A stretch of 64,000 nt of DNA from Myxococcales bacterium (lineage in GTDB: Bacteria > Myxococcota_A > Polyangia > Haliangiales > Haliangiaceae): assembly GCA_016794525.1 (NCBI GenBank), contig JAEUJY010000077.1, positions 45,091-109,090 of the forward strand, written 5' to 3'. Below are positions 6,002 through 64,000 of this stretch, in pieces; position 1 is the stretch's first letter, and each line of letters begins with the position of its first letter. The translations under genes were made by a program, and so were the position numbers. Under the pieces are notes generated by a model. That model was not told the DNA's origin, did not search any database, and worked only from the letters and a program-made list of their open reading frames with translations.

Positions 6002-6012
6002 GCGGCCCGGCG

Positions 6013-15557: not shown

Positions 15558-18329
<2,772 letters not shown>

Positions 18330-18501
18330 GGTAGCCCGCGGGCCGCACGCGCGTGTGTCACCCGTGCGGTGACAGTTGACACCGGATTGGCGACACCACG
18401 CGCGCGCCGGGTAAGCTCGCCGCGCCGACTGGTGGCCGCAGCCTTGCAGTGTCCAGGACCGAGTGAAGATCGCACGCCGACTCGCACAGGGAGCACCTCG
18501 C

Positions 18502-22061: not shown

Positions 22062-22652
22062 CTAGTCGAAGACGACGTTGCCGAGATCGGTGGACGGGAG
22101 GCCGTCGTCGCGCAGGAGGAAGTAGCCACCTGCGCCAGCGCCGGCGACGGCGGCGATGCCGCCCCAGAACCACCAGCGAGTGTAGATCGGTTTGTCGCTG
22201 CCGCGCGCCGCGCGCTGGCGGGCCAGCTCGCGCTCGCGCTCGCGGTCGAGCTCGGCCTGGCGCTCGCGCTCGCGCTCCTCGGCCGCGGCCTGCCGCGCCT
22301 CGAGGTCGTCGATCAGCTTCTCGACGGCCTCGCGGTTGTCGGCGTCGGGCACCTCGCGCAGGTACTTGCGGAAGGCGAAGATCGCCTGGTCGTAGTGGTC
22401 GAGGTTGCGGTGCGCCTGGCCGATGTTGAACAAGAGCTTGGGCAGGGGCTTGGCCTCGTAGGCGGCCTCGAACTCGGCCAGCGCCTGATCGAACTTGCCC
22501 AGCGCGAACAGCTTGTCGCCCTTCGCGTAGTGCTTCTTGGCGTCGCGCGTGGCGGCGTCGTCGGCGCGCGCGGAGCCGATGCCCACGCCCACGCTCACCC
22601 CGAGCACCAGCGCGATCAGGGCGCACACCCCGACGGCGACCCGTCGGCTCAT
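22062..22652 (-). CDS. Small TPR-like membrane-anchored protein.
   Basis: ATG at 22652 overlaps the kinase stop (ATGA). Signal/TM MSRRVAVGVCALIALVLGV. TPR-like AKKHYAKGDKLFALGKFDQALAEFEAAYE. A charged ERERER linker precedes a C-terminal TM. Confidence 0.55.
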   Translation of the reverse strand: MSRRVAVGVCALIALVLGVSVGVGIGSARADDAATRDAKKHYAKGDKLFALGKFDQALAEFEAAYEAKPLPKLLFNIGQAHRNLDHYDQAIFAFRKYLREVPDADNREAVEKLIDDLEARQAAAEERERERQAELDRERERELARQRAARGSDKPIYTRWWFWGGIAAVAGAGAGGYFLLRDDGLPSTDLGNVVFD

Positions 22653-24601: not shown

Positions 24602-24720
24602 GCAAGGTCGGGTGCGACGGGCGCACCCGGACCACCTTGTATTCTACGGTCGCCTACGGACGGGGGCAATGGCTATCGCCGCCTGGCGGTAGGGGCGGGG
24701 GGCGACGAGCCCCCTGGAAC

Positions 24721-31961: not shown

Positions 31962-34900
31962 CTACCGACCGCGGGCCGTGAGGTAGCGACGCACCTCCTC
32001 GGCCTGGGCCTGGTTCTTCGGGTTGCGGGCCAGGTACGCCTCCCACGCGCGGATCGTGGCGCCGTCGTTGTGCATCACCTGCTGGACGGTGCCGAGCAGC
32101 CACAGCGCGTCGGTCAGCCACGGCACGGTCACGCCGTCCTTGCGCTCGTCGGTGGTCGCCAGCGCGGTGGCGCGCTCGAGGGCGCTGGCGGCCTGCGCGG
32201 CGCGATCGCCCTCGTAGTACAGCTCGCCGAGCTTGTAGTAGGCGTCGGCGCGCGGCTGGGCGGCGACCGCCTTGGTCAGCCACGCGACCGCGTTGGCGCG
32301 GTCCTCGAGCTCGACGTAGGCCATGCCCAGGCCGTACGGCAGGTCGGGGTTGCCGGGATCCTTCTCGAGCGCCTTCTTGAAGGCGGTGATCGCCTTGTCG
32401 TACTCGCCGCGGGCCAGCCGGATCCGGCCGGCGCCGGCCCAGGCGTTGACGATCGACTCGTCGAGCGACGCGGCCTGGTCGTAGGCGCGCAGCGCCTCGT
32501 CGCGGACCGCGGTGTCGCCGGTCTGGCCCGAGAACTTCTCGCTGACGCGGCCGAGGCCGTCGAGGAACTGGGCGTCGGGGTTGCGGCTGGTGGCCTCCTG
32601 CATCATCCGCCGCGCCTCGCTGAAGCGCTTGTCGAGGAGCAGGCCCTCGCCCTTGAGGAACAGGCCGGTGGGGTCGTCGGGCGTGACCGCGAGCAGCTCG
32701 TCGCCGAGCGCGCGGGCGGCGGCGATGTCGCCGGTGCGCGCGAAGAACCGGCCGGCGCGGATCTTGGTCTCGACGGTGACGTCGGCCAGCCGCAGCAGCT
32801 TGCGGTACAGCTCGGCGGCGTCGGCGTCGCGGTGGGCGGCCTCGAACCCGCGGGCCAGCTCGACGCCGAGGTCGATGCGGCTCGGGTCGAGCTCGAACGC
32901 CTTCACCAGCGTCGCCACCGCCTCGTCCTGCTTGCCCTGGCGGCGCAGCGCCTCGGCCAGCTGGTAGTGGGCCTCGACCTCGGCGGGCCGCTGCTCGATC
33001 GCGCTGCGCAGCCAGCGCTCGGCCTGGGGCGCCGCGCCGGCCGACAGATACGCGACACCGAGCGCGATCGCGACGCCGGCGTCGCTGGTCGCCGCGGCGG
33101 CGATCGTCGTCAGCTTGGCGTCGGCCCGCGCGCGCAGCGCGGCCGCCTCCTCGGGAGTCTTGGCCGCGTCGGCCATGTGGCCGAGGATCGTCGCCGCGGC
33201 GATCGTCGGGGCGATGTCGCCGGCGCCCAGCGCGGTGGCGGCGCGCTCGTACGCGGCCAGCGCCGCGGCGGGGTTCTTCTCGGCCTCCAGCCGGTGGCCG
33301 TCGATCATGTCGAGGCGGCCCAGCATCGCCGGCGCGGTGATCGGCGGCTTGCGCGCGCGCAGCGCCGCCAGCCGGGCCGCGGCCTCGGCGATCTTGTTGC
33401 GGCGCAGGTCGATCTCGGCGGCGGTCAGGCCGGCGTCGACGTCGTCGGGCGCCAGCGCCAGCGCCTTGTCGGCGGCCTCGGCGGCGGCGTCGATCTTGCC
33501 GTCGGCCAGCTCGGTCGCGGCCAGCGACACCAGCACGCCGCGATCGCCGGGGAGGATCGCCAGCGCCTTGCGGTAGCGATCGCGGGCCGCGTCGAGGCGA
33601 CCGCCGCGGCGCGCCTCGTCGCCGGCCTTGGTCCACGCGAGCACGACCGCGCGCGGGTCGGCCTTGTCGATGCCGGTGCGCTGCAGGATCGCCAGGAGCG
33701 CCGTCTCGCGCTTGCCCAGATCGGTGGTGGGCGCGGTCAGCGCCTCGCCGACCAGCGCGCCGACGTGCTCGGGCGCCAGCTCGATCACCTTCAGGTAGCT
33801 GGCGTGGGCCGCGGCGACGTCGCCGGCGGCCTGCTGCGCCTGCGCCAACCCGTAGGTCGCGGGCACCGGCCGCGCGGTCAGCGCGGCGGTGAACGCCTGC
33901 TGCGCGGCGGCCCACTCCTGGGCGCCGGCCTGGGCCCAGCCCAGGTACAGCTGCGCGTCGGCGTCGCCGCGCGCGGCCAGCGGGGTCAGCGCGGCGATCG
34001 CGCCGGTGTAGTCGCCCTCGATGACGTCGCGCACCGCGGCGGCCTTGTCGACCGCCGGGTGGTGGGCGCCGTTGGTCGTCGCGGTCTCGATCAGCCGCCG
34101 GCCGTTGGCGAGCCGGGACTCGGCCTGGGTGCCCTCCTCGACGTACCCGACCAGCGCGGCCTGGGCCGCGATGCCCAGCGCCTCGGCGTGGCGCTTGTCG
34201 AGCGCCAGCACGTCGTTCGCCGCGCGGGCGGCGCGCCGCCAGTGGCTGTCGTCGTTCGCGAGCAGCGCCTTGCGCGCGGCCTTCAGGTTGCGATCGAGAT
34301 CGGCGGCGCGGGTCTTCTGCGCGTCCCACCGCTTGTACATGAAGAAGCCGCCGGCGCCGACCGCGCCGACGCCGAGCACCGCCGCGAGCACCAGCTTGGC
34401 GGCGCGCGGCGACAACCCGCGCTTGGCCGGCCCCTCCTTGGGCGCGGCGCGCGCCTTGGGCTGCGCGGGCGCGTCGCGGCGCGGCACCGCGAGGTCGATG
34501 TCGCCGGTGTTCGCGGCCGGCCCGCGGCTGTCCGCGCTGCCCGGCGAGGTGGCGGCGCCGGCCTTGAACGAGACGACCCCGCGCCCGGCCGCGGCGGCGG
34601 CGGCCGGCGAGCTGGGCAGGTCGAGGCCGAGCGGATCGCCGTCGCCGAGCTCGAGCGCGGGCGGCGGCTCCGACGGCGCGTGCGCGCGCGGCGTCGCCGG
34701 CACGCTGCGGGCGCTGGCGTTGGTCGGCTCGAGCTCGATCATCCCCGAGCCGCCCGAGGCCGGCGGCAGGTCGATCCCCTCGAGGGCGGCCCCCGGCGCG
34801 ACGCTCGGCGGCGGCGCCGGGAAGCGATCGGCGCGCGGCACGCTGGGCGGCGGCAGGTCGTCGAACAGGCCGATCGCCGGCGCCGGGCTCTTGGCCGGCG

Positions 34901-35996
34901 GCAGATCGTCGAACATGCCGCCGGGGGATGGCGGCTCGACGCGCGCGGCCGGCGGGTTGGTCGCCGGGCCGGGGAGGTCGTCGAAGAAGCCCTTGGGCGC
35001 GGGCAGATCGACGCCGCCCTTGCCGGTGGCCGGGCCGGGGAGGTCGTCGAAGAAGCCCTTGGGCGCGGGCAGGTCGGGGCCCCGCGGGGTCGCCGGGCCG
35101 GGGAGGTCGTCGAAGAAGCCCTTGGGCGCGGGCAGATCGACGCCGCCCTTGCCGGTGGCCGGGCCGGGGAGGTCGTCGAAGAAGCCCTTGGGCGCGGGCA
35201 GCGGCGCGTCGTTCGCGTGCGGGCGCGCCGGCGGGATCGTCGGTGGCATGCCGCCGACGGTGCGCTTGGGATCGGGCGGCGGTGGCGCGGCGGCGGGGCG
35301 CTTCGGCGCCGGCAGGTCACCGATCGTCGGCCCCTTGGGCGCCGGCAGGTCGGCGAACAGGTCGTTGCCGCTCGCGCGCTTCGGCGTCGGCAGATCGCTG
35401 ATCGCCGGCGGCCCCTTGGGCATCGGCAGGTCGCTGATCGCCGGCGGCCCCTTGGGCATCGGCAGGTCGCTGATCGGCGGCGGCCCCTTGGGCGCGGGTA
35501 GGTCGACGATGCCGGCCGATGGGCCCTTGGGCGCGGGCAGGTCGACGATCGCCGACGGCGACGGGCCCTTGGGCGCGGGCAGGTCGGTGAACGGCCCCGG
35601 CGCGGTGGCCTTGGCGGCCGGGGGTGGCGCGCCGCGCGGCGAGGGGCCGACCGGCGCGACCAGGTCGACGCCGTCGAGCGTGAACGGCTCGGGCTCCCGC
35701 GGCTTGGGCACCGCCTTGGGCGCGGGCAGGTCGACGATCGCCGACGGCGACGGGCCCTTGGGCGCGGGCAGATCGACGGCCTCGACGCGGCCGCCGGGCA
35801 CGCCGGCCGGCGACGGGCGGCGCGGCGCGGGCAGATCCGCGAGGTCGATGACGTCGCCGGTGCCACCCGCGACGTCGCCGGGGACCACGATGCGCGCCTT
35901 GCACTTCGCACACGACACCGTCTTGCCCGCCGGCGGAATGTCAGCCGCGGGGAAGCGGTACATCGCGCCGCACACGGCGCATGCCACTTCCTTCAT
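31962..35996 (-). CDS. 1344-aa protein: N-terminal MJ0042-type zinc ribbon, Pro-rich tandem repeats (DLPAPKGP / FFDDLPGPATGKGGVDLPAPKG), one TM helix, then about 800 aa of TPR repeats. Architecture is GltJ/AgmX-like.
   Basis: Zinc ribbon CAVCGAMYRF...SCAKCKARIVVP. TM VLAAVLGVGAVGAGGFFMY. Many TPR units. Single long frame with strong codon bias. Confidence 0.7.
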   Translation of the reverse strand: MKEVACAVCGAMYRFPAADIPPAGKTVSCAKCKARIVVPGDVAGGTGDVIDLADLPAPRRPSPAGVPGGRVEAVDLPAPKGPSPSAIVDLPAPKAVPKPREPEPFTLDGVDLVAPVGPSPRGAPPPAAKATAPGPFTDLPAPKGPSPSAIVDLPAPKGPSAGIVDLPAPKGPPPISDLPMPKGPPAISDLPMPKGPPAISDLPTPKRASGNDLFADLPAPKGPTIGDLPAPKRPAAAPPPPDPKRTVGGMPPTIPPARPHANDAPLPAPKGFFDDLPGPATGKGGVDLPAPKGFFDDLPGPATPRGPDLPAPKGFFDDLPGPATGKGGVDLPAPKGFFDDLPGPATNPPAARVEPPSPGGMFDDLPPAKSPAPAIGLFDDLPPPSVPRADRFPAPPPSVAPGAALEGIDLPPASGGSGMIELEPTNASARSVPATPRAHAPSEPPPALELGDGDPLGLDLPSSPAAAAAAGRGVVSFKAGAATSPGSADSRGPAANTGDIDLAVPRRDAPAQPKARAAPKEGPAKRGLSPRAAKLVLAAVLGVGAVGAGGFFMYKRWDAQKTRAADLDRNLKAARKALLANDDSHWRRAARAANDVLALDKRHAEALGIAAQAALVGYVEEGTQAESRLANGRRLIETATTNGAHHPAVDKAAAVRDVIEGDYTGAIAALTPLAARGDADAQLYLGWAQAGAQEWAAAQQAFTAALTARPVPATYGLAQAQQAAGDVAAAHASYLKVIELAPEHVGALVGEALTAPTTDLGKRETALLAILQRTGIDKADPRAVVLAWTKAGDEARRGGRLDAARDRYRKALAILPGDRGVLVSLAATELADGKIDAAAEAADKALALAPDDVDAGLTAAEIDLRRNKIAEAAARLAALRARKPPITAPAMLGRLDMIDGHRLEAEKNPAAALAAYERAATALGAGDIAPTIAAATILGHMADAAKTPEEAAALRARADAKLTTIAAAATSDAGVAIALGVAYLSAGAAPQAERWLRSAIEQRPAEVEAHYQLAEALRRQGKQDEAVATLVKAFELDPSRIDLGVELARGFEAAHRDADAAELYRKLLRLADVTVETKIRAGRFFARTGDIAAARALGDELLAVTPDDPTGLFLKGEGLLLDKRFSEARRMMQEATSRNPDAQFLDGLGRVSEKFSGQTGDTAVRDEALRAYDQAASLDESIVNAWAGAGRIRLARGEYDKAITAFKKALEKDPGNPDLPYGLGMAYVELEDRANAVAWLTKAVAAQPRADAYYKLGELYYEGDRAAQAASALERATALATTDERKDGVTVPWLTDALWLLGTVQQVMHNDGATIRAWEAYLARNPKNQAQAEEVRRYLTARGR
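34930..35560. repeat. Near-perfect DNA tandem repeats (units of about 60/120 nt and 42 nt) encoding the Pro-rich repeats of the ZnR-TPR protein.
   Basis: Repeated unit gggccggggaggtcgtcgaagaagcccttgggcgcgggcagatcgacgccgcccttgccggtggcc, and ggcaggtcgctgatcgccggcggccccttgggcatc x3. Confidence 0.7.
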
Positions 35997-36044
35997 CTGA
36001 TCGAAATTGTACCCCGCCGGCGCGGGCGATGCGCGGCCGGGTGA

Positions 36045-36644
36045 CTACTTGCGGGTATCGAACGGGTTGCCGCCCAGCTCGCCGCCCGCGCCGCCACCGC
36101 CGCGCCCGCGCCGCCGGCCCCGGGGCGCCGCCTCATCCGGAGCGTCGAGCCGCGCGCCGCGCAGGCCGCGCAAGATCTTGCGGTCGACCTCGGGCAGCAG
36201 GTCGAGCAGCGTCGCGGCCTGCTCGGGCGTCAGCACCGCGCGCAGGTCGGCGAAGCGCTGCTCCTCGGCGGTCCACCGCGCGCGCTGGTTGGCGACCAGC
36301 TGGTCGAGCGCCGCGGTGATGTCGGCCGCCTTGTGGGCGGTGCGCGCGGTCGCCAGCTTGTCGCGCAGCGCCGCGCGCTCGGCCAGCAGCTTGGCCAGCA
36401 CCTCGTCGTACTTGTCGAGCACCGGGAACAGCTTGCCGGCGGTGGCCTCGTCGAGATCGAGCTGCTCGGTCAGCACCATCGCGCGCATGATCCGGATGCG
36501 CTGCTTGACCTTGTCGCGCTTGCCGCCGTTGCCGGGGCCCTTCTGCGCGACCTGCGGCCCGCCGCGGTCGGGCCGCGCCTCCGCCGGCGCCACCAGGCCG
36601 GCCACCACCAGCACCCCCACGAGCATGGTTCGCAGCGTCGTCAT
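36045..36644 (-). CDS. Periplasmic LTXXQ-motif protein (Spy/CpxP-like family).
   Basis: ATG at 36644 after AGGAGG. Signal peptide. Motifs MVLTEQL and VLTPEQ. ATGA overlap with the anti-sigma stop. Confidence 0.55.
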   Translation of the reverse strand: MTTLRTMLVGVLVVAGLVAPAEARPDRGGPQVAQKGPGNGGKRDKVKQRIRIMRAMVLTEQLDLDEATAGKLFPVLDKYDEVLAKLLAERAALRDKLATARTAHKAADITAALDQLVANQRARWTAEEQRFADLRAVLTPEQAATLLDLLPEVDRKILRGLRGARLDAPDEAAPRGRRRGRGGGGAGGELGGNPFDTRK

Positions 36645-37236
36645 CCTGCCTCCTGCGCGTCGAGCCACGCCAGCGCGCGGTCGAGCTCGTCATCGGAGAA
36701 GTCGTCGATCCAGCCGGTCCAGGTCGCGCCCAGCGCCGGCAGCTCGTCGTCCCCGTCGTCCTCGTCGTCGAACGCGATCACCTCGTCGATGAGCGCGTCG
36801 TCGATCGGGCCCAGCCCGTCGAGGTCGCTGGCGGGATCGTCGTCCATCGCCAGCGCGGGATCGTCGTCGTCGACCGGCGTCGGCGCGGGCGTCGGCGCCA
36901 CCGCGATGCTCGGCAGCGGCACCACCGGCCACGACCAGCGCCCGGCGTGCGGCCGCACCGCCAGCGCCACCGCCGCGGCCGCCGCCAGCACGACGCCGGC
37001 GTACAGCCACGGCCGCCGCCGCGCCGGGGCCCGGGTGGTCGCCGCGAAGATGCGCTCCTCGAGGGCGCGCCAGTCGGGCGCCGCGCCGGCGGTCGGCAGC
37101 GCCCGCACCGCGGCCACGGTGCCGCCGTCGTCCTCGGCCAGCGCCGCCTCGACCCGCGCGCGCTGGGCGGCGGTCAACGCCTCCGGCGCGTCGGCGTAGG
37201 TCGCCAGCAGCTCGTCGAGGGTAGCGTCGTCGTTCA
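36641..37236 (-). CDS. Putative anti-sigma factor (single TM; acidic periplasmic tail).
   Basis: ATG overlaps the ECF sigma stop (ATGA). TM helix [18 protein letters not shown]. Position between an ECF sigma factor and a periplasmic LTXXQ protein. Confidence 0.5.
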
Positions 37237-49447: not shown

Positions 49448-51302
<1,855 letters not shown>

Positions 51303-52648: not shown

Positions 52649-53251
52649 ATGGCGGCCGATCCGATCCAGCGACTGGTCCGCGAGCTGGCCCGCCTGCCGG
52701 GCATCGGCGAGAAGTCGGCGACCCGCCTGGCGATGCACCTGGTGCGCTCGCCCAAGCCGCAGGTGCGCGAGCTGGCACAGGCGCTGATCGACGCCACCGA
52801 GCAGATCGGCCTGTGCTCGACCTGCATGACGCTGACCGCCGAGGATCCCTGCCGGCTGTGCGCCGACACCCGCCGCGACAACGACGTCGTGTGCGTGGTC
52901 GCGCAGCCGTCCGACGTGATCGCGATCGAGCGCGGCGGTCACTACCGCGGCCGCTACCACGTGCTGCACGGCGTGCTGGCGCCGCTCGACGGCATCGGCC
53001 CCGACGATCTGCGCATCGCCGAGCTGGTGCGGCGGCTGGCGCCGGTCGGCGGCCCCCCGGTGCACGAGGTCATCGTCGCCACCGCGCCGACCGTCGAGGG
53101 CGAGGCCACGGCGATGTACCTGGCGCGGCTGATCAAGCCGCTGGGCGTGCGGGTCACCCGGATCGCGACGGGCCTGCCGGTCGGCGGAGATCTCGAGTAC
53201 AGCGATCAGGCCACCATCGGTCGGGCCCTTGCCGGCCGCACCTCGCTGTAG
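52649..53251 (+). CDS. recR: Recombination protein RecR.
   Basis: HhH motif LPGIGEKSA; C4 zinc finger CSTCMTLTAEDPCRLC; Toprim domain. Confidence 0.9.
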   Translation: MAADPIQRLVRELARLPGIGEKSATRLAMHLVRSPKPQVRELAQALIDATEQIGLCSTCMTLTAEDPCRLCADTRRDNDVVCVVAQPSDVIAIERGGHYRGRYHVLHGVLAPLDGIGPDDLRIAELVRRLAPVGGPPVHEVIVATAPTVEGEATAMYLARLIKPLGVRVTRIATGLPVGGDLEYSDQATIGRALAGRTSL

Positions 53252-53327
53252 CCGAGCGCCAGCGATTCTCTGGGCGACGCGTACAGCCTCCTGGCTGCGA
53301 CCCGGGCGGCTCGGCTACCCTGGCGTC

Positions 53328-53795
53328 ATGCGCCCCTGGCTCGGTGCCTTCTCTCTGGCGATCGCCGCCGCGTGCAGCGGCGGCGGCGGCGACCCCCCAC
53401 CGGCGATCGACGCGCCGCCCAACACCGACGGTGGCGGCGGTGATGACGCGGCCTCAGTCGACGCCGCAGCCGTGGACGGAGCGGGCGTGGTCGACGCCAC
53501 CGCCGTCGACACGATCGGCCCGCCCGACGGCTTCACGCTCCCCGACGGCCTGATCGGCGTCGACTGCGTGATCGGCGCCGAGGTGATCGGGCCGGGGCAC
53601 ATCGCGTCCAACCCGGCCGGCATCAACTGCGCGCCCGACTGCCGCGAGACGGTGGCGTGCGGCTCGACGATGGTGCTGACCGCGATCCCCAACGCGGGCG
53701 CGGTCTTCGTCGGCTGGTCGGGCGCCTGCAGCGGCGGCACCTGCACGGTCACCGCCAATGGGCCGCTGACCCTGGCCTTCGCGCGGTTCCAGTGA
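53328..53795 (+). CDS. Hypothetical lipoprotein.
   Basis: Lipo-box LAIAAACSGGGG. Confidence 0.45.
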   Translation: MRPWLGAFSLAIAAACSGGGGDPPPAIDAPPNTDGGGGDDAASVDAAAVDGAGVVDATAVDTIGPPDGFTLPDGLIGVDCVIGAEVIGPGHIASNPAGINCAPDCRETVACGSTMVLTAIPNAGAVFVGWSGACSGGTCTVTANGPLTLAFARFQ

Positions 53796-53948
53796 ATCGC
53801 CGAGGGATCCGGACCGGGCGATAATTGCCCGGAATAGTAGAAAGAATCTCGGGCCGTCTGGTACGTTGGCCAGTGGCTGGGGCCAGGCGTCCGCCTCCCG
53901 GTCACGTTCGACTGTACTCGACCAAAGGCCGGTAGGAGCCCAGGCGCG

Positions 53949-54428
53949 ATGTCCAACCAACTGGTGATGTACGAAGAGGAGCTAGCGCAGATCAGCAACA
54001 TCTGCGACGTGCTCCAGCGCGACTCCAACGCGAAGGCGGTCCTCGTCATCGACAAGAACGGCCAGGCGATCGCGCAGTCGGGCGAGGTCGAGCAGCTCGA
54101 CGTCACGTCGCTGTCGTCGCTCACCGCCGGCAACGTGGCGGCCACGGGTGGCATCGCGCAGCTCCTCGCCGAGAAGGAGTTCGCGGGGCAGTTCCACGAG
54201 GGCGAGAAGACCAACGTCCACATCTCGATCGTCGGCGCCCGCGTCATCCTGCTGGTCCTGTTCGACGAGCGCAGCTCGCTGGGGCTGGTGCGCCTGCGCG
54301 TGCGCAAGGCCGCCGTCGAGCTGACCCACGTCCTCGAGGTCCTCGTGAAGAAGAGCGAGTCGGGCAACCAGCCGTCGGTCTTCGCCGAGATCACCGACGA
54401 CGACATCGACAACCTGTTCAACGACTAG
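53949..54428 (+). CDS. mglB: Roadblock/LC7 GTPase-activating protein MglB.
   Basis: 159 aa, near-colinear with Myxococcus MglB: QLVMYEEE ... LTAGNVAA ... LGLVRLR ... DDDIDNLF. Confidence 0.85.
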   Translation: MSNQLVMYEEELAQISNICDVLQRDSNAKAVLVIDKNGQAIAQSGEVEQLDVTSLSSLTAGNVAATGGIAQLLAEKEFAGQFHEGEKTNVHISIVGARVILLVLFDERSSLGLVRLRVRKAAVELTHVLEVLVKKSESGNQPSVFAEITDDDIDNLFND

Positions 54429-54440
54429 GCGCGGGGACGT

Positions 54441-55028
54441 ATGAGCTTCATCAACTACTCGTCGCGCGAGATCAACTGCAAGATCGTCTACTACGGGCCG
54501 GGTCTCTGCGGGAAGACCACCAACCTGCAGTACATCTACAACAAGACCAACCCCGAGGCGAAAGGGAAGATGATCTCCCTCGCCACGGAGACCGATCGCA
54601 CGCTGTTCTTCGACTTCCTGCCGCTGTCGCTCGGCGAGATCCGCGGCTTCAAGACCCGCTTCCACCTGTACACGGTGCCGGGTCAGGTGTTCTACGACGC
54701 CAGCCGCAAGCTGATCTTGAAGGGCGTCGACGGCGTCGTCTTCGTCGGTGACTCGCAGCTCGAGCGCATGGAAGCCAACATCGAGTCGCTCGACAACCTG
54801 CGCACCAACCTGCAGGAGCAGGGCTACGACCTCGACAAGCTCCCCTACGTCGTGCAGTTCAACAAGCGCGACCTGCCGAACTCGGCGCCGATGGAGGAGC
54901 TGCTCGAGGTGCTGAACCCGACCAAGGTCCCGCACTACGAGGCGGTGGCGACCAAGGGCGTCGGCGTGTTCGACACGCTCAAGGCGGTGGCCAAGCTGGT
55001 GCTGACCGAGCTGCGCAAGGCCGGCTGA
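54441..55028 (+). CDS. mglA: Ras-like gliding-motility GTPase MglA.
   Basis: 195 aa. [15 protein letters not shown]-loop, TVPGQ switch II, NKRD. Confidence 0.9.
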
Positions 55029-57013
55029 TGGCCGGGATCGATTTCGGAGGAGCCATGACCGCGATCGCGCATCCGCGTTTCCGTACGGATCTGGTGGCCG
55101 AGCCCATCGACGACGGCGGCAAGCGCTTCATCGACGTCGTCGATCCGGACAGCGGCAACGGCTTCCGCTTCTTCGAGATCGAGTATTCGCTGGCGTGCGC
55201 CATGGACGGCGCGCGCGACATCGCCGGCATCCAGCGCTGGGCCCGCGAGGAGCTCGGCCTCGAGCCGTCCGCCGCCGAGGTGGCGACGGTGATCTCGACG
55301 CTGGGCGACCTCGGCTACCTCGAGGGCACCGCGCCGACCAGCGTCGCCGCCGACGAGCCCGAGCTGGCCCCCGGCGTGGTGGCCGCGCGCCCGACCGCGG
55401 CGCCGGCGAGCTTCGCCGACGTCGAGCTGGGCACCGCTGGCGCCGCGCCGCCGCGCGCGGTCGAGGACCTGCCCGCGGTCGACGACTTCGAGCTGGGCAC
55501 CGCCGGTGGCGTCGCCCACCACGCGAGCGCGCCGCCGATCACCGACGGCCCCGAGCTGGGCCCGTCGGGCGACGCGCGCATGATGGAGTTCGACGCCCCG
55601 ACCCCGCCGCCGGCGGCGATGCCGACCGCGACGATGCGGCCGAGCTCGCGCCCCGACGCCGAGGACGACGGGCCGACCAACCTGCCCAAGCCGCAGTCGA
55701 TCGCCGACGAGGACGAGGTGTCGGTCGACCTGGCCGATCACCTCGCGGTGTCGGCCTCCGACGTCAAGGAGGCGGTGCGCGCCTCCAAGGTCATGTCCGC
55801 GGTCGACGTCCCCAAGGACGTGCTCGACCAGCTCGAGGCCAGCGAGACCGCGGCCCGCGAGACCGCCGAACGCGAGGCTGCGGCCCGCGAGCAGGCGGCG
55901 CGTGAGGCGGCCGCCCGTGAGGTCGCGGCGCGCGAGGCCGAGGCCCGCGAGGCCGCGGCGCGTGACGCCGCCGCCCGTGACGCGGCGGCCCGTGAGGCTG
56001 CGGCGCGCGAGGCTGCGGCCCGCGAGGCCGCCAGCCAGGCGGCGCGCGAGCAGGCCGGTCGGCCGGTGGCGGATCTGCCCCAGATCCCCGTCGGCGTGTC
56101 GAAGAAGAAGCCCGGCGTCGACGCGCCCAAGGACGGCGACAAGGCCGTCGCGGCCACGCCGGTCGAGCCGCCCAAGGCCGGCACCAGCAAGGCGCTGGTG
56201 TTCGTGCTGGTGCTGGTGCTGCTCCTGGCCGGCGCCTTCGTCGTCTGGACCAAGGTCCTGAAGAAGCCGCTGCCGTGGGAGAAGTCGGACGACGGCCAGG
56301 CCGCGACGCCGACCAAGCCGACCCAGCCCACGCCGCCCACGCCGCCCCCGCCGCCCCCGCCACCGCCGGCGCCCACCGCCGCGCTGACCGAGAAGCCGGG
56401 CGACGTGTCCAACGTCGTCGCCGGCCAGATCGGCGTCGTCGCGTTCGTGGCCGCCGACGGCGCGCAGGTCGCGGTCGGCGACGAGCTCCTGCGCTTCAGC
56501 GCCAGCCCGGCCGACGAGAAGAAGCTGACCGGCCTCGACAACGATCTGAACGTCCGCTACCCGAAGCAGCTCAAGGACGCGACCGCCGCGCGCGACAAGG
56601 CGCAGGCGGCCGGCAACGCGGGCGCGCAGAAGGCGGCCGAGGCCAAGATGGCCGAGGTGCAGAAGAAGATCGACGCCCGCACCGCCGAGCGCGACGCGCT
56701 GCGCGCCAAGCTCGACGGCCTGACCATCAAGGCGCCCATCGCCGGCGTGGTCAAGCTCGAGGGCAACATCGCCAAGGGCGCGCGCACCACCGCCGACCAG
56801 GCGGTCGCCACCGTCACCGGCCCGGCGTCGCTGATCGCGACCTTCACGATCCCGACCGGCGGCAAGACCTACAGCCAGGACGCGTCGGTGATGGTGTCGG
56901 CCAAGGACCAGAAGGCCAACTGCACCGCGACCTCGGTCGATGGACCGACGGTCATCGTGACCTGCCCCGCCGATGCCGGCATCGCCGCCGGCACGATGCT
57001 GACGCTCGAGTAG
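55028..57013 (+). CDS. MglA-coupled membrane protein: PqqD/RRE-like N-terminal domain, (EAAAR)n repeat tract, TM helix, Pro-rich segment, HlyD-like (biotin-lipoyl/coiled-coil) C-terminal domain.
   Basis: ATG overlaps the mglA stop (TGATGG). TM helix ALVFVLVLVLLLAGAFVVW. Run of PPTPPPPPPPPPAP. HlyD-like region ...VVAGQIGVVAF...LTIKAPIAGVVKL. Confidence 0.55.
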   Translation: MAGIDFGGAMTAIAHPRFRTDLVAEPIDDGGKRFIDVVDPDSGNGFRFFEIEYSLACAMDGARDIAGIQRWAREELGLEPSAAEVATVISTLGDLGYLEGTAPTSVAADEPELAPGVVAARPTAAPASFADVELGTAGAAPPRAVEDLPAVDDFELGTAGGVAHHASAPPITDGPELGPSGDARMMEFDAPTPPPAAMPTATMRPSSRPDAEDDGPTNLPKPQSIADEDEVSVDLADHLAVSASDVKEAVRASKVMSAVDVPKDVLDQLEASETAARETAEREAAAREQAAREAAAREVAAREAEAREAAARDAAARDAAAREAAAREAAAREAASQAAREQAGRPVADLPQIPVGVSKKKPGVDAPKDGDKAVAATPVEPPKAGTSKALVFVLVLVLLLAGAFVVWTKVLKKPLPWEKSDDGQAATPTKPTQPTPPTPPPPPPPPPAPTAALTEKPGDVSNVVAGQIGVVAFVAADGAQVAVGDELLRFSASPADEKKLTGLDNDLNVRYPKQLKDATAARDKAQAAGNAGAQKAAEAKMAEVQKKIDARTAERDALRAKLDGLTIKAPIAGVVKLEGNIAKGARTTADQAVATVTGPASLIATFTIPTGGKTYSQDASVMVSAKDQKANCTATSVDGPTVIVTCPADAGIAAGTMLTLE

Positions 57014-57082: not shown

Positions 57083-57298
57083 ATGGCGAAGCTGACCGGT
57101 ACGATCCAGAAGAGCGACCTCGAGGGAGGCCACTGGTTGCTCGTGACCGCCAAGGGCGAGCAGTACCAGCTCGTCGGCGCCAAGGGCGTCAAGGCCGGCC
57201 AGGAGGTCGTCGTCGAGGGCTCGGTCGACCGCGGCGCGATGGGCATCGGCATGACCGGCCCCACGTTCACGGTGAAGAAGATCTCGCCGAAGAAGTGA
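57083..57298 (+). CDS. Small hypothetical protein (71 aa).
   Basis: AT-richer Lys codons than the antisense frames; sits in an intergenic-size gap. Confidence 0.35.
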   Translation: MAKLTGTIQKSDLEGGHWLLVTAKGEQYQLVGAKGVKAGQEVVVEGSVDRGAMGIGMTGPTFTVKKISPKK

Positions 57299-57300
57299 CG

Positions 57301-57642
57301 CTACGGCCGCGCGGCGCCCGGCGGGTGCGCCTTGCAGCGATCGGCCCACGGCATCTCGAGCAGCGACGCCGCGCCGAGATCGACGCCGCACTCGTCACAC
57401 CGGCCGTAGCGATCGTCGTCGGCGTCGAGCCAGCGGCGGCGCTGCTCGACCTGATCGAGCGCGGCGCGCAGGATCTCCTCGGGCCGCGCGCCCGGCTTGG
57501 CGTCGAGGCCGAGCGCGCGCACCAGGCGATCGCCGTCGGCGCCGGCCAGCAGCGCGGCCAGCTTGGTGGCCAGCTCCTGGCCGCGGCGCATCAGGCCGCG
57601 GCGGAGGGTGACGCGGGTCTCGGGATCGAAGCGGTTGGTCAT
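57301..57642 (-). CDS. DksA/TraR-family C4-type zinc-finger protein.
   Basis: C-terminal motif CDECGVDLGAASLLEMPWADRC. ATG overlaps the upstream lipoprotein stop (ATGA). Confidence 0.5.
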   Translation of the reverse strand: MTNRFDPETRVTLRRGLMRRGQELATKLAALLAGADGDRLVRALGLDAKPGARPEEILRAALDQVEQRRRWLDADDDRYGRCDECGVDLGAASLLEMPWADRCKAHPPGAARP

Positions 57643-58682
57643 CGGGCCTTGGGCAGGGTGGACAGCAGCGCCTCGGCGGCGCGGGTGACGTCCGCCTGGC
57701 TGCCGCCCGAGGCCGGGAAGCGCTGCGCGACATGCCACAGCACGTGGCCGTCGCGATTGTCGACCATCGTCATCTCCAGGTACAGCGCCGAGCGACCGCG
57801 TCGCGGCGCGTCCGGGCGCTGTGCCCACTCGATCGTCGGGCCCGCCTGCCAGTCGGCCGGGCCGTAGGGGTCGCGCGGCCCGACGTAGAGCTCGATGCGC
57901 GGGTCGAGCATGCGCGGCACGACCCGGCCGGGGAACGTGCGCAGCAGGTGATCGGCGAGGTGCGCGCTGGTGCGGCCGACCTCGAACGCGACGTTGCCCG
58001 CGCGCGCGAGGCCATGCACCGCGACCCGCCCGGTCGCGACCGCCGCGTCGGCCACCGCGTCGGCGGCGCGGGCCAGGCTGCCGCCGCCCTTGTGCTTGCT
58101 CTTGGCCAGCGCCACCGCGACCACGACCGCCACCACGACGACCGCGGCGATCACCAGCACCTTGACCGCGGCGTTGTCGCCGTCGGGATCCTCGCCGACG
58201 TAGGCCCAGCCGCCGACGTACAGCGTCGCCTCGGCGCCCGACGCGCCCAGCCGCGCCGGCAGCGGTGGCTGCGGCAGGCCGCCCAGCCGCGCCGCGGCGT
58301 CGTGATAGCCGGCCAGCACCGCCTGCGTCGCCAGCAGCTGCTCGGGCGCCATCGCCGCGTGGGGCGCGCCGTCGTCGCCGACGAACGTGCCGTCCCAGCG
58401 CAGCTGCGCGCCCGGCAGGTAGCCGCGCTGGTACAGCGCCGTCGTGGCGGCGCCGGTCAGCGCGCTCTCGGCGGCCAGCCGCAGCGCCTCGGGATCGCCG
58501 CGGCGACCGTCGGTCCACACCGCCAGATCGATCGGCAGCACGTCGACCCGGGCGACGCCAGCGGCGTGGCCGCTGAGCCGCTGGTCGACCGTCGCCACCG
58601 GCCGCGGCCACGAGGGGGAACACGCCGCCACGAAGCAGGCGGCCGCCGTCAGGGCGACCACGCGTTGGCGCAGGCCGGTCAT
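57639..58682 (-). CDS. Hypothetical lipoprotein with an internal TM segment.
   Basis: Lipo-box VVALTAAACFVAACS. TM VLVIAAVVVVAVVVAVALA. Confidence 0.45.
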   Translation of the reverse strand: MTGLRQRVVALTAAACFVAACSPSWPRPVATVDQRLSGHAAGVARVDVLPIDLAVWTDGRRGDPEALRLAAESALTGAATTALYQRGYLPGAQLRWDGTFVGDDGAPHAAMAPEQLLATQAVLAGYHDAAARLGGLPQPPLPARLGASGAEATLYVGGWAYVGEDPDGDNAAVKVLVIAAVVVVAVVVAVALAKSKHKGGGSLARAADAVADAAVATGRVAVHGLARAGNVAFEVGRTSAHLADHLLRTFPGRVVPRMLDPRIELYVGPRDPYGPADWQAGPTIEWAQRPDAPRRGRSALYLEMTMVDNRDGHVLWHVAQRFPASGGSQADVTRAAEALLSTLPKAR

Positions 58683-58798
58683 GCCTGGAAGCGTAGCAAG
58701 CGACGTTCCGCCACCGATGTGGCCGATCCGCGCACGGCGCGCGCGTGCCCGGCCGACACCGTGGCGCCGCCGCCACACCGTGCGTATCATCGCGGCCC

Positions 58799-59077
58799 AT
58801 GCGCTCCGCTCTGGTCCCCGTGCTGGCCGCGCTCGCGCTGGCCGCCTGCACCTCGCCCAAGAGCAAGACCTGCCGCGCGATCTGCGCCCGCGAGGCCGAG
58901 TGCAACGGCGCCAAGCCGTCGGAGGCGTCGAGCTTCGACGAGGGCGAGTGCATCGCCGCCTGCGCCGCGCTCGAGGTCGACAAGAACCCGTTCATCGCCG
59001 GCCAGGTGACCAAGCGCGCCGAGTGCCTGCGCTCGACGACCAGCTGCGGCGACTACCAGAGCTGCGCCGGCAAGTAG
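58799..59077 (+). CDS. Small Cys-rich lipoprotein.
   Basis: Lipo-box VLAALALAAC; about eight Cys in 75 aa. Confidence 0.4.
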   Translation: MRSALVPVLAALALAACTSPKSKTCRAICAREAECNGAKPSEASSFDEGECIAACAALEVDKNPFIAGQVTKRAECLRSTTSCGDYQSCAGK

Positions 59078-59084
59078 CGGCGCC

Positions 59085-59945
59085 TCACCGCGTCTGCGGA
59101 TCGATCGCGTCCCGCAGGCCGTCGCCCAGGAAGTTGAGCGCGAAGATCGTCAGGCCCATCGCCAGGCCGGGGCCAGCCAGCACCCACGGCGACACCGCCA
59201 CCTGGGTCGATCCCTCGGTGACCAGCGTGCCCCACGACGCCAGCGGCGCCTGGACGCCCAGCCCGATGAACGACAGGAACGTCTCGAACAGCATCGCCTC
59301 GGGCACCAGCACGGTGGCGTAGACGACGACCGTGCCCAGCGTGTTGGGGATGACGTGGCGGAACACGATCCGGAGCCGGCCGGCGCCGATCGCGCGCGCC
59401 GCCTCGATGAACTCGCGCTGCCGCAGCGACAGCACCTGGCCGCGGACGATGCGCGCCATCGTCAGCCACGACATCACGCCGATCAGCGCGATCAGCGACA
59501 CCAGGCTGCGGGTGTCGAACACGGCGCGGACGACGACGACGAGGACGATCGTCGGGAACCCGTACATCACGTCGACGATCCGCATCATCACCGCGTCGAC
59601 CCGGCCGCCGGCGTAGCCCGCGATCGCGCCCCACGCCACGCCGATCACCAGCGCCACCGCGGTGGCGGTCAGGCCGACGACCAGCGCGATCCGCCCGCCG
59701 ATCAGCACCCGCACCAGCAGATCGCGACCGAGGTTGTCGGTGCCCAGCGGGTGCGCGGCCGACGGCGGCGCCGCCAGCAGGTCGAGGTCGAGCGTCGTCG
59801 CGTCGAGCCCGAACCAGCCGCACACCACCGGGCCGACGACGCACGTCAGCGTGATGACCGCGAAGCCGATCAGGCACGCGAAGGCCATGCGGTTCTTGCG
59901 CAGCCGCTGCCACGCCTCGCGGCCGAGCGAACGCGGCGCGCTCAC
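59085..59945 (-). CDS. ABC peptide-transporter permease (OppC/DppC-like).
   Basis: GTG start overlaps the oppB-like stop (GTGA). Binding-protein-dependent transport signature EAARAIGAG. Confidence 0.75.
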   Translation of the reverse strand: MSAPRSLGREAWQRLRKNRMAFACLIGFAVITLTCVVGPVVCGWFGLDATTLDLDLLAAPPSAAHPLGTDNLGRDLLVRVLIGGRIALVVGLTATAVALVIGVAWGAIAGYAGGRVDAVMMRIVDVMYGFPTIVLVVVVRAVFDTRSLVSLIALIGVMSWLTMARIVRGQVLSLRQREFIEAARAIGAGRLRIVFRHVIPNTLGTVVVYATVLVPEAMLFETFLSFIGLGVQAPLASWGTLVTEGSTQVAVSPWVLAGPGLAMGLTIFALNFLGDGLRDAIDPQTR

Positions 59946-60868
59946 GCCGCGGGCTCGCTGTGGCGGATGCGCGGGTCGAGCCAGCCGTAGGCCAGGTCGA
60001 CCAGCAGGTTGGCCACCACCAGGAAGCCGACGTAGAAGACCAGGAGGCCGGTCAGGACCGGGTAGTCGCGGCTGGTGACGCTGTCGACGAAGTAGAAGCC
60101 CAGCCCCGGGATCTGGAAGATCTTCTCGACGACGAACGACCCGCTGATCAGCCCGGCGGTGGCCGGCCCCAGGTAGCTCACCACCGGCAGCAGGCCGAGC
60201 CGGAGCCCGTGCCGCCACACCACGCCGCGCTCGCTGACGCCCTTGGCCCGCGCGGTGCGGATGTAGTCGGCGCCCAGCGTCTCGATCATGCTGGCCCGGG
60301 CCAGCCGCGCGATCGTGCCGGCGTAGATCAGGCCCAGCACCGCCGCTGGCGCCAGGTAGCCGACGACGCCGTCGGCGCGCGCCGCCGGCACCCAGCCTAG
60401 CTCGAGCGCCAGGTAGCGGATCGCGATCGGCCCCAGCACCAGGGACGGGATCGAGATGCCGATCAGCGCGACGCTCATCGCCGCGTAGTCGACCCAGGTG
60501 TTCTTGCGCGCCGCCGCCAGCACCCCGAGCAGCGTGCCGAACACCGCCGCGAAGCCGATCGCCATCAGCCCCAGGGTCAGGCTGTACGGGAAGTGGCGCT
60601 TGATGATCGCGCCGACGGTCTCGGGGCGCTTCATCGAGTGGCCGAGATCGCCGCGGGCCAGCCCGCCCATGTAGCGCGTGTACTGCTGCCACAGCGGATC
60701 GTGCAGGTGGTAGCGGTCCTCGATGTTGCGCTGCACCGCCGGCTGCAGCCGCCGCTCGCGCGAGAACGGCCCGCCCGGCGCCGCGTGCAAGAGCAGGAAC
60801 GTGATCGTCGCGACCGCCGCCAGCACGGCGACGCCGCCGGCCAGGCGACTCACGATCAGGCGCAGCAC
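59942..60868 (-). CDS. ABC peptide-transporter permease (OppB/DppB-like).
   Basis: Six TM helices; N-terminus MLRLIVSRLAGGVAVL; transport signature region. Confidence 0.75.
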   Translation of the reverse strand: MLRLIVSRLAGGVAVLAAVATITFLLLHAAPGGPFSRERRLQPAVQRNIEDRYHLHDPLWQQYTRYMGGLARGDLGHSMKRPETVGAIIKRHFPYSLTLGLMAIGFAAVFGTLLGVLAAARKNTWVDYAAMSVALIGISIPSLVLGPIAIRYLALELGWVPAARADGVVGYLAPAAVLGLIYAGTIARLARASMIETLGADYIRTARAKGVSERGVVWRHGLRLGLLPVVSYLGPATAGLISGSFVVEKIFQIPGLGFYFVDSVTSRDYPVLTGLLVFYVGFLVVANLLVDLAYGWLDPRIRHSEPAA

Positions 60869-60923
60869 GCGCGGCGATCATCGATCCGCGCGCCGCCGAT
60901 GTCCACCGACGGCGGCGCGGCGA

Positions 60924-61484
60924 TCAGAACGTGCCGACGACGGCGACGCCGGCGCGGTCGGGCGCCACCGACGGCGCGATCGCGACGCTGCGCCGGGCCC
61001 GCGCGTTCAGCCGGGCGGCGCGCCGCGGCGCGGTGATGATGTCGTCGACGGTGCCGGTCAGGTAGGCCAGCGCGCCGACCGCCAGCAGCGCGGTCCCGAC
61101 GTTGACCTCGTCGCACGGCTCGTCCGAGAACAGCGGGCACTCCTCGAGCGCCACCGCGAAGCCGACCGCCGCCACCGCGGCGCCGGCGGTGCGCACGCCG
61201 AGCCCGCGCGTGAACACCTCGCCCGTGTAGAGGTGGCCAGCGGACGGCCCCACGAACGTCACCACCGCGCCGGCGGTCATCATCGGCGAGTTGACGCGGT
61301 CGATGCCCACGGCGTAGAGCCCGATCCCCGCGGCGGTCGCGCCGGCCGACAGCGCGAGCGCGCCGGCCTCGCTGTACGTGTCGCCGGTGCTACGGGGCGG
61401 CTCGGCGGCGGCACCGGACTGGGCGTGCGCGAGCGCGGGGACGGCGAGGACGGCGAGGGCGGCGACGACAGCGAGGCGAGTCAT
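60924..61484 (-). CDS. Secreted/membrane hypothetical protein.
   Basis: Signal peptide MTRLAVVAALAVLAVPALAHA. Confidence 0.4.
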   Translation of the reverse strand: MTRLAVVAALAVLAVPALAHAQSGAAAEPPRSTGDTYSEAGALALSAGATAAGIGLYAVGIDRVNSPMMTAGAVVTFVGPSAGHLYTGEVFTRGLGVRTAGAAVAAVGFAVALEECPLFSDEPCDEVNVGTALLAVGALAYLTGTVDDIITAPRRAARLNARARRSVAIAPSVAPDRAGVAVVGTF

Positions 61485-61611
61485 GCCCCCGCGGTTTGCA
61501 GCCCCCGGGCCAGATCGGCAGTCGCCAGTGATTTCAGCTGGTTGGCGGGCGGTTTCTGTTAGCCGATCGCCACCCCGCGGTGATCCTTCGACGCCGAGCC
61601 GCGCTCAACCG

Positions 61612-63802
61612 TCAGCGCCGCTGCCGCCAGTCGGGATCGCGCCAGGCCCGCCACAGCGACGGCTGGGCGAACAGGTTCTCGGGCAGGCCGCGCACGTAGG
61701 GGCGCTGCAGGTTCTTCTGCGTGTAGACGAACATCGGGATGATCGGCGCCTCCTCGACCAGGATCGCCTCGGCGGCCCGGACCTTGGCCAACCGCGCGGC
61801 CGGGTCGGTCATCTGCGCGGCCTCGTCGAGCAGCGCGTCGAACGCCGGGTTGCACCACGCCGGGCGGTTGTTGGGGCTGCCGCAGCGCCAGATGCGCACG
61901 AACTCGACCTCGGGGTCGGCGGCCGAGCCGATCCAGCCCAGGCGGGCCACCTGGTACTCGAGCTGGCGGGTGTCGTTCAGGAACACCTGCCACTCCTGCT
62001 GCTCGAGCCGCACGCCGATGTGCAGCACGTCCTGCCACTGCGCCTGGATGTACTCGCTGACCAGCTTGTGGGCCTCGAAGCCGATGTTGAACTTGTAGAC
62101 GATCTCCTTCGGGAAGCGGTCGCCCATCTCGGCCTTGGCCTGGGCCAGCTCGGCGCGCGCGCGATCGGGATCGAACTCGAGGCCGGGCGGCGGCACGTAG
62201 CAGAGCTTGCCCCGCTCGATCACCAGCGCGACGCCGGGCGTCGTCCGCGTGACGCCGCAGGTGCGCAGATCCTCGTCGGTCAGGTCGGCGATCGGCGTGC
62301 CCGGCGTGTAGCTGGCGACGCCGATCTCGCCGCCGCGCAGGAAGCCGGCGATGCGCGAGCGATCGAGCGCCAAGGTCAGCGCCCGACGCAGGTGGACGTT
62401 GTCGAAGCGCTTGGTGTTGACCACCGCGAAGTACGTGCCGAGGTACGGCGCGACGGTGTAGTCGCGGTACGGCTTGCCGTGGTTGCCGGTCGACAGCGCC
62501 GCCAGGTACGACTGCGGGATGTTGTTGGCGGCCACCGCGTCGCACACGCCGGTGAAGTACAGGTTGGCGCTCGCGGCCTGCTCGTCGATCGACAGCACGG
62601 TCAGCCGGTCGAGCTTCACCTCGGCGGGATCGCGGTAGGTCGCCGAGCGCACCAGCGTCAGGTGATCGCGCGGCGCGTGCTCGGCCAGCCGCATCGGCCC
62701 CGAGGTGACGATCGTCGCCGGCGCGGTCCAGGTGCGCGGGTGGCGCGACACTGCCGCGCGCGGCGTCGGCCGCATCGCCCGCGACGCGCCGGTCGCGACG
62801 ATCGACGGCGTCGGATCGCTGGCCTCGACCACCAGCGTCTGCGCGTCGACGACGCGGATCCCGAGGACCTCCGGCAGCATCAGCAGGTCGGCGTTGGTGA
62901 CCTCGACCTCGGCGCGCGGCCGCGCGGCGTCGGCCTGCAGGTCGGCCCACGCGCCGTCCTTGCCGGGCACGTGCTTGGCGGCCACCGGCACGACGCGCAC
63001 GCGGTGATCGGCGGTCGGCGCGCCGTCGAGCTCGTCGGCCGGCACCCAGCCGTAGACGCCGAGGCCGTGATCCCAGTGGACGTAGGCCCAGGTCCGGGCG
63101 TCGGGGCTGGGCAGCGTCGCGGGGCGCCCCGAGAGCTCGACGATCGTGACCGCGGCGCGCGGCGGCACGGTGGCGTACGCGGCGGTCGCGTCGGCGCCGA
63201 GGTCGCGGAGCGCGAGCGCGCGGCTGGCGGTGCGCTGGTTGGGATCGGGCGGCGCGGTGTCGCCCCAGTCGGCGAGCGGCTTGCCGTCGACGGCGGTGAC
63301 CTCGACGATCGTGCCGGCCGGCAGGCCGCCGGCGTCGCGCACCAGCACCCGCGCGCGGTTCTCGAGGTACGCGAGGTTGTTCTTCAGCCAGTCGAGCGAA
63401 TCGGCGTTGACCGACGCGGTCAGCGGGTGCAGCACGCGCACCAGCTGGTAGGCGACGTCGTACGCGGTGAGCGGGCGGCCGTCGCTCCACCGCGCCTCGG
63501 GCCGCAGGTGGAACGTCACCCGGCGCTGATCGGGCGCGACGTCCCAGCGGCTGGCCAGGCCGGCGACCGGCAGGCCGTCGTCGCCGAACACCAGCAGGCC
63601 GTCGAACAGCGCGTACATGATCGGCGTGACCGTCGTCGACTGGCCCTCGGCCGGGTCGAGGCTGTCGGGCTCGCCGCTGTTGCACCAGGTCAGCGTGTGC
63701 GGATCGTCGACCGCGGGCACCTTGCCGAAGTACTCGCTGTCGGGCAGGCCGCAGCCGACGGCGGCGAGCGCGGCGAGCGTGGTAAGGTGGCGGCGCGTCA
63801 TG
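61612..63802 (-). CDS. ABC transporter substrate-binding lipoprotein (family 5, OppA-like), unusually long (~730 aa).
   Basis: Lipo-box LAALAAVGC. SBP_bac_5-like motifs. ATG at 63802. Confidence 0.7.
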
Positions 63803-64000
63803 GACGAGTTTCGTTGTCCCCGCTGCGGGAGCTTCGCGGCCGATCGTACGGAGTCGCGGTTCGCGGCCTTCACCATGGTCGAGATGAACTGCCGCGGATG
63901 CAAGCTCTACGAGGAGCGACGCAGCGACGCCGCCGACTTCGCCGCGTTCAAGGACCGCTGGCGCGGCCGACCGCAGATCCCGATCTACGACTACTACGAC
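63801..64000 (+). CDS. Zinc-ribbon small protein, 3' end outside the window.
   Basis: Begins MDEFRCPRCGS ... CRGCK. Not in the ORF track because it is truncated by the window end. Its ATG overlaps the divergent SBP start. Confidence 0.3.

Follow-up and report, generated by a model that had tools for sequence, protein, structure and literature searches.

MglA, a small GTPase, and the GTPase-activating protein (GAP) MglB that acts on it constitute a model bacterial polarity switch, and the only case known to us in which this pair reaches across the inner membrane to a machine of the envelope is that of GltJ in Myxococcus xanthus. GltJ has a disordered linker with a motif to which its own cytosolic ZnR domain binds; MglA-GTP competes with the domain for this motif, and the ZnR domain so released recruits MglB. 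Past a transmembrane (TM) helix, the periplasmic portion of GltJ is at first flexible and then forms a TonB-C domain (PMC11135422). Here we describe a locus at positions 53949-57013 of a 64,000-nucleotide (nt) stretch of contig JAEUJY010000077.1 (GCA_016794525.1), hereafter the window, to which all coordinates refer. The stretch comes from a myxobacterium of the order Haliangiales, and its mglB and mglA genes are directly followed by a third gene, here called gene 3, whose predicted product combines a folded cytoplasmic domain, a single TM helix and a periplasmic adaptor domain. We tentatively favour a reading in which gene 3 is the third mglBA cistron in Haliangiales and encodes a membrane effector or anchor that couples the MglA/MglB polarity module to an envelope structure.

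The locus is filled by three co-directional open reading frames (ORFs; 53949-54428, 54441-55028 and 55028-57013), all on the + strand, as are the features of gene 3 given below. The first encodes a 159-residue Roadblock/LC7 protein, the GAP of MglA, which matches the Pfam family Robl_LC7 (PF03259) at E=6.6e-12 and 45.4 bits, above the cut-off of 23 bits, and M. xanthus MglB (6h5b_B) at E=1.4e-58. After a gap of 12 nt, the second encodes a 195-residue group-1 Ras-like polarity GTPase that aligns end to end, over residues 1-195, with M. xanthus MglA (6hjh_A, E=2.3e-108). It carries the G1 motif GPGLCGKT, an arginine finger in TDRT next to the G2 threonine, and the G3 motif TVPGQ (YTVPGQ in the alignment); TVPGQ and an intrinsic arginine finger are the motifs by which group-1 MglA is defined (PMC4316618). 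mglA thus lies beside its cognate mglB and, judged by sequence, both genes are true orthologues of their M. xanthus namesakes, in agreement with the initial annotation of the locus.

Gene 3 (55028-57013) encodes a predicted bitopic inner-membrane protein of 661 residues if counted from position 55028, or 652 from 55055. Its 322 homologues are mostly unnamed or entered as 'hypothetical protein' in their sources, with a few labelled 'efflux RND transporter periplasmic adaptor subunit' (RND, resistance-nodulation-division) or 'biotin carboxyl carrier protein', and we did not find a description of the family in the literature. Scanning one genome per species, we found 106 relatives and kept 80 loci, nearly all of them from Kofleriaceae, Haliangiales, or metagenome-assembled genomes of unclassified Myxococcales or Deltaproteobacteria. 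By tblastn, gene 3 directly follows mglA in 79 of these 80 loci, and thus in 79 of the 79 that can be tested, the DNA of the 80th lacking the upstream part. mglB precedes mglA in every locus whose DNA reaches far enough, usually with ybaB-recR before it, and two more contigs retrieved through a protein database (L087, L088) have the order mglB-mglA-gene 3 too. Across these loci, the identity of gene 3 drops as low as 29-35% in the best tblastn segment, versus 81-100% for MglA, without loss of the linkage. The initial annotation had staked its proposal on conserved linkage to mglA, and on this point it holds.

How closely is the expression of gene 3 tied to that of mglA? The mglA stop codon TGA (55026-55028) overlaps the first ATG of gene 3 (55028-55030) by one base, forming the junction TGATG (55026-55030) from which translational coupling had been proposed. 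While the overlap is present, a second in-frame ATG at 55055 (M10), preceded by GGAGGAG (55046-55052) and the two bases cc (whole element 55046-55057), is as good a start: gene callers chose its equivalent in near-identical proteins, and homologues start 5-9 residues ahead of a PRFR motif. The start codon in the window is thus ambiguous, and the spacing from mglA is either -1 nt (start at 55028) or +26 nt (start at 55055). A third choice, the V23 at which the NCBI annotation of the identical protein begins (JNK64_17725, 639 residues; window 55028-55096), is probably a mis-call, because it cuts off the invariant P16-R17 of the PRFR motif. Scanning the + strand of the window from mglB through the end of gene 3, we found no terminator-like or promoter-like sites. 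Among 65 analysable related loci, 18 offer only an overlapping gene 3 start (TGATG or ATGA), 13 offer an overlapping or a downstream one, and most of the remaining 33 start 0-9 nt past the mglA stop; measured from this stop, the PRFR codon lies at a median distance of 28 nt. As overlapping starts and starts within 0-9 nt dominate, tight or translational coupling of gene 3 to mglA is typical of the family; for the window itself it is not proven.

Domains with the fold of RiPP recognition elements (RREs; RiPP, a peptide that is made ribosomally and modified post-translationally) are known mainly from peptide natural-product pathways, and in RRE proteins the fold binds peptide as an extra β-strand between β3 and α3. 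An N-terminal domain of PqqD/RRE type had been proposed for gene 3, and the proposal stands for the fold and falls for the sequence. In the following, the anatomy of gene 3 is described from an alignment of 25 homologues, and family statistics refer to 51 full-length members. The putative RRE/PqqD-like cytoplasmic domain occupies residues 16-96 (55073-55315) and is the most conserved part of the protein, with a mean column identity of 73% versus 48% in the periplasmic domain, a difference consistent with a cytosolic partner that is itself highly conserved. It is acidic, with 17 Asp/Glu versus 8 Lys/Arg. Its AlphaFold2 (AF2) model (pLDDT, the predicted local distance difference test, 72.8) consists of three strands followed by three helices, which is the βββ-ααα order of the strict RRE definition (PMC12710340), and its best fold matches are the leader-peptide-binding RREs TfuB1, TbiB1, CteB, LynD and PqqD. 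Sequence searches with the domain returned no match in Pfam, NCBIfam or the PDB, where a profile search yielded no RRE at E<=10. The Pfam PqqD model (PF05402) matched only two of 21 gene 3 members, at E=0.16, and an hhalign comparison with a small PqqD alignment gave an insignificant probability of 12%. In a hidden Markov model search with the domain, the best 150 of 555 matches all belonged to the same family. With moderate confidence, we regard the domain as RRE-like by its modelled fold and not as a member of PqqD by sequence.

The domain is followed by a disordered linker rich in Pro, Ala, Gly and Asp (residues ~100-230), within which the alignment reveals three conserved motifs of the type D[VF]ELGxxG. 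In the window they read DVELGTAG, DFELGTAG and GPELGPSG (55418-55441, 55484-55507 and 55547-55570; 55418-55570 overall), and L134/G135, L156/G157 and L177/G181 are invariant in the 25 homologues. A further conserved block, residues 214-262 (55667-55813), consists of DGPTNLP and then EVSVDLxDHLxxxxxDVKEAVRASKVMxAVDVP, with S232, L235, D245, V246, E248-R251, S253, M256, V259 and P262 invariant; its DV[KQ]EAVR element occurs in 41 of the 51 full-length members. In several linker motifs (DVELG, DFELG, VSVDL), hydrophobic residues alternate as they do in β-strands. Next comes an Ala/Glu/Arg spacer (55844-56062), which had been described as a perfect (EAAAR)n tract of about 13 repeats. There are indeed 13 pentads, all ending in Arg, but they are imperfect, with six exact EAAAR, two DAAAR and five variants. 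In the DNA, Tandem Repeats Finder reports a period of 15 nt at 55837-56031, with 13 copies and 77% matches. From its composition, the tract is probably a single α-helix. At least five EAAAR-like units are found only in the window and in its relatives L001 and L013, other members having Ala/Glu/Pro/Lys-rich spacers of differing length; the tract is a lineage-specific variable spacer and not a defining feature of the family.

The single TM helix predicted at residues 387-411 (56186-56260) has its counterpart in one strong hydrophobic segment in 50 of the 51 homologues, the exception being L004, whose maximum is weak (1.58) and offset. Beyond it lies a periplasmic Pro-rich rod, residues 426-451 (56303-56380), with a core of nine consecutive prolines (PPPPPPPPP); a Pro-rich stretch past the TM helix is found in most of the 51 homologues. 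The C-terminal domain of ~215 residues (56375-57010) has the predicted build of a periplasmic adaptor, or membrane fusion protein (MFP): a lipoyl half, an α-hairpin (56507-56716), the second lipoyl half and a β-barrel, with no membrane-proximal domain. Its AF2 model, built with 21 homologues, has a pLDDT of 94.5 and shows strands, a two-helix hairpin (H49-83 and H86-118, 33-35 residues per arm) flanked by strands, and the barrel. Foldseek matched it to TMexC at E=1.6e-12 and further to Spr0693, AcrA, MexA, MacA and EmrA (E between 1e-12 and 1e-8), and a PDB sequence-profile search to the TriAB fusion (8e-14), HlyD (1e-4) and EmrA (7e-4). Curated MFP cut-offs were not reached, with 18.7 versus 22.2 bits for HlyD_3 and 33.6 versus 94.9 for TIGR01730 (RND_mfp). 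The domain is thus confidently modelled as a genuine TM-anchored periplasmic adaptor core of the HlyD/EmrA class, and the TM helix, poly-Pro segment and HlyD-like periplasmic domain of the initial annotation all find support.

Two features set this adaptor core apart. The barrel contains Cys632 (56921-56923) and Cys646 (56963-56965), and 49 of the 51 homologues have exactly two periplasmic cysteines, in most cases at a spacing of 14 residues, a degree of conservation which suggests that they form a disulfide. Together with the adaptor fold, this conserved pair points to an N-in, C-out topology. The second feature is the hairpin tip. In the MacA/AcrA literature, the RLS tip motif (R-x3-L-x6-S) serves docking to a TolC-type channel; a loose search for R-x3-L-x6-[S/T] anywhere in the hairpin found it in only one of the 51 family sequences. 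Instead, the tip has a conserved A-x-A-A-G-N, with A in 47 and N in 38 of the 51. With the Pro-rich rod as a spacer, the adaptor domain could stand at a considerable distance from the inner membrane.

What role would such a protein play beside a polarity GTPase? The operon structure, the linkage and coupling to mglA, the conservation of the N-terminal domain and its RRE-type fold, the linker motifs, the adaptor fold and the precedent of GltJ together speak for a membrane effector or anchor of the MglA/MglB module, a functional proposal that is plausible but unproven. By analogy with GltJ, the RRE-like domain may bind one of the protein's own linker motifs as a strand, and MglA-GTP, MglB or both may shift this interaction. 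Such a shift would in turn control the oligomerization of the periplasmic adaptor, or the docking of its A-x-A-A-G-N hairpin tip to a partner in the outer membrane or periplasm whose gene lies elsewhere. In its full form, this would make gene 3 a new kind of small-GTPase effector, in which an RRE fold holds strands of its own linker until release by MglA-GTP or MglB gates the assembly of an adaptor ring that docks onto an outer-membrane structure; so specific a mechanism we consider a speculative and rather unlikely one. Were it true, the polarity GTPase of Haliangiales would directly turn on, at one cell pole, a conduit or tether that spans the envelope and serves secretion, adhesion or the transmission of force.

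Several points weigh against assigning gene 3 to the Mgl module. The physical or functional link to MglA is one that we infer only from the operon structure and the GltJ analogy. The synteny dnaX-ybaB-recR-mglBA is likewise conserved, even in Anaeromyxobacter, with no known functional link between these genes, so that conserved gene order alone is weak evidence. No ABC (ATP-binding cassette), RND or MFS (major facilitator superfamily) pump gene and no TolC-like or other outer-membrane factor (OMF) gene adjoins gene 3 in the window or appears among the conserved neighbours in the 80 loci. Finally, Corallococcus and Anaeromyxobacter lack gene 3 behind mglA; it is hence an addition specific to its order and does not belong to the Mgl module in general. 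The initial annotation had suggested a comparison with the genes that follow mglA in other Myxococcales, and these turned out to be unrelated in both genera: there, as in a third lineage, a gap of 100-177 nt separates mglA from the genes for a protein of 200-260 residues and two very large tetratricopeptide repeat (TPR) proteins.

MFP genes normally adjoin the genes of their pump, and the lack of such a neighbour bears as well on a more conventional explanation, that gene 3 is an ordinary adaptor of a tripartite efflux or type 1 secretion pump whose ABC or MFS transporter and OMF are encoded elsewhere, its place behind mglA providing co-expression and no interaction with MglA or MglB. This explanation, which we hold to be doubtful while taking it seriously, draws on the C-terminal domain being a true TM-anchored MFP core that lacks a membrane-proximal domain, like HlyD and EmrA, on the functional cytoplasmic N terminus that HlyD, too, possesses as a matter of general knowledge on type 1 secretion, and on the equal synteny of the neighbouring housekeeping genes. 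It has to contend, however, with the near-absence of the RLS docking tip, with scores that stay below the Pfam and NCBIfam cut-offs for MFPs, with the widespread stop/start overlap with mglA, and with a Pro-rich rod of ~40 residues that parts the barrel from the membrane, just where the barrel would sit on a transporter. If gene 3 nevertheless proved to be an unrelated efflux adaptor, it would serve as a case of how tight operon linkage can mislead.

The N-terminal domain invites two other interpretations. As its best fold matches are leader-peptide-binding RREs and its topology satisfies the strict RRE definition, it might recognize the leader of a RiPP or bacteriocin and pass the peptide to an export pump, with gene 3 acting as a peptide-export adaptor. 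Yet the conserved neighbourhood contains no RiPP precursor peptide, modifying enzyme, peptidase-ABC exporter or other biosynthetic gene, the domain has no sequence match to PqqD/RRE models, and the sole invariant neighbours are mglB and mglA, so that we judge peptide export improbable. A membrane-tethered transcription factor of the ToxR/CadC kind, in which a TM helix joins a cytoplasmic winged-helix domain for DNA binding to a periplasmic sensor, would show a comparable order of parts. However, the strongly acidic charge of the domain and a strand-helix order unlike that of OmpR- or Fur-type winged helices led us to reject DNA binding; as the best fold matches are RREs and ~290 residues, including a disordered acidic linker, separate the domain from the membrane, we give this interpretation almost no credence. 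A membrane effector or anchor of the MglA/MglB module thus remains the reading that we prefer, on the tentative terms given above.

The surroundings of the locus add further observations. A small ORF of 71 residues, 69 nt past gene 3 (57083-57298, + strand), resembles DUF5818 (Pfam, 5.2e-5, below cut-off) and is possibly a fourth cistron, in the window only. Of 53 loci, 47 have a DUF5818 homologue no farther than ~2.7 kb downstream of gene 3; the homologue is on the strand opposite to gene 3 in 41 of 49 and on the same strand in eight. Across loci, the conserved neighbours are dnaX, ybaB, recR, mglB, mglA, DUF5818 and a gene for a TPR protein with an SLT lytic transglycosylase domain (~730 residues). 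The latter is the convergent downstream neighbour in 42 loci (for example L002:5161-7341, - strand) and is not found at that position in the window; it may be more than chance that an enzyme which cuts peptidoglycan is encoded next to a protein that spans the envelope. In the window, the region 57301-63906 (- strand) holds a DksA/TraR-like zinc-finger ORF (a weak match, E=0.06), a 383-residue membrane protein and an Opp-type ABC importer with permeases and a family-5 binding protein, together with a Cys-rich lipoprotein on the + strand (58745-59077), a block shared only with the closest relatives, L001 and L013. The importer (59085-63906) and an ABC-2 permease at 40200 were considered as pump partners of gene 3 and set aside as unrelated by position and type.

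Upstream, recR and mglB are 0.7 kb apart in the window (53251-53949) and 2.9-3.4 kb apart in close relatives with 94-99% protein identity (L001, 5996-8922; L051, 4440-7896). This interval is a hotspot of insertion and deletion directly ahead of the mgl promoter region; in the window it contains an ORF (53229-53795) that resembles a lipoprotein and has an InlB B-repeat-like domain. In DnaX, a Pro-rich insert (50700-50950) includes the unit TTERVPERI(A/T)PP in duplicate. Elsewhere in the window, three Ser/Thr protein kinases (9034-10827, 15558-18596 and 22649-24643, - strand), a sigma-54 response-regulator activator (3369-4862, + strand) and a 1360-residue TPR protein (31962-36044, - strand) fit a myxobacterial genome, and none of them is linked to gene 3.

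In the lineages that have no gene 3 behind mglA (L081-L086, ~5690-10588), the alternative set comprises TPR proteins of ~775-800 and ~1110-1180 residues and the small protein, which has no Pfam match and, in Corallococcus, a signal-peptide-like N terminus. The small protein and the two TPR proteins are unrelated to gene 3 and have no match in the window, whose own pair of a 214-residue and the 1360-residue TPR protein (31962-36689) does not match this set either. A literature description of this set was not found. Wide variation of group-1 mglA neighbourhoods as such has been reported (Wuichet and Sogaard-Andersen, PMC4316618).

If the preferred reading is correct, a co-translated membrane-spanning partner of MglA and MglB in a sister order would amount to a second, independently built connection from polarity to envelope, with gene 3 as the named candidate. 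It would also extend the RRE peptide-binding fold beyond natural-product biosynthesis, and would provide a periplasmic adaptor that has no neighbouring pump. As Haliangium ochraceum and Kofleria flava are in culture, the idea can be tested.

Both folded parts of gene 3 are of known kinds; what is new is their combination, the geometry introduced by the Pro-rich rod, the absent pump gene and the fixed place behind mglBA. Compared with RREs such as PqqD and the lasso-peptide B1 proteins TfuB1 and TbiB1, the N-terminal domain has no significant sequence similarity, and it is fused to a membrane protein within a GTPase operon that has no RiPP gene cluster around it. With the HlyD/EmrA class, gene 3 shares a cytoplasmic N-terminal segment, one TM anchor, a lipoyl domain split by a hairpin, a β-barrel and the lack of a membrane-proximal domain, the layout described for TM-anchored adaptors of the EmrA class (PMC4158417). 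Yet its cytoplasmic part comprises ~385 residues including a folded domain, versus ~60 in HlyD, and it differs from both HlyD and EmrA in the rod between TM helix and barrel, the likely conserved disulfide, the missing RLS tip and the lack of adjoining pump and OMF genes. The closest parallel in layout, as far as sequence and fold models allow it to be drawn, is GltJ (AgmX) of the M. xanthus Agl-Glt gliding machinery, which acts as a switch, binding MglA-GTP via its linker and MglB via its ZnR domain (PMC11135422). In both, a small folded cytosolic domain and a disordered linker with conserved motifs precede the only TM helix, beyond which a flexible or Pro-rich stretch leads to an outward-reaching periplasmic domain. 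The two proteins share no domains, however: Pfam finds neither ZnR, GYF nor TonB-C in gene 3, in which ZnR and GYF would be replaced by an RRE-like fold and TonB-C by an MFP core. Moreover, GltJ is not encoded beside mglA, whereas gene 3 directly follows mglB-mglA.

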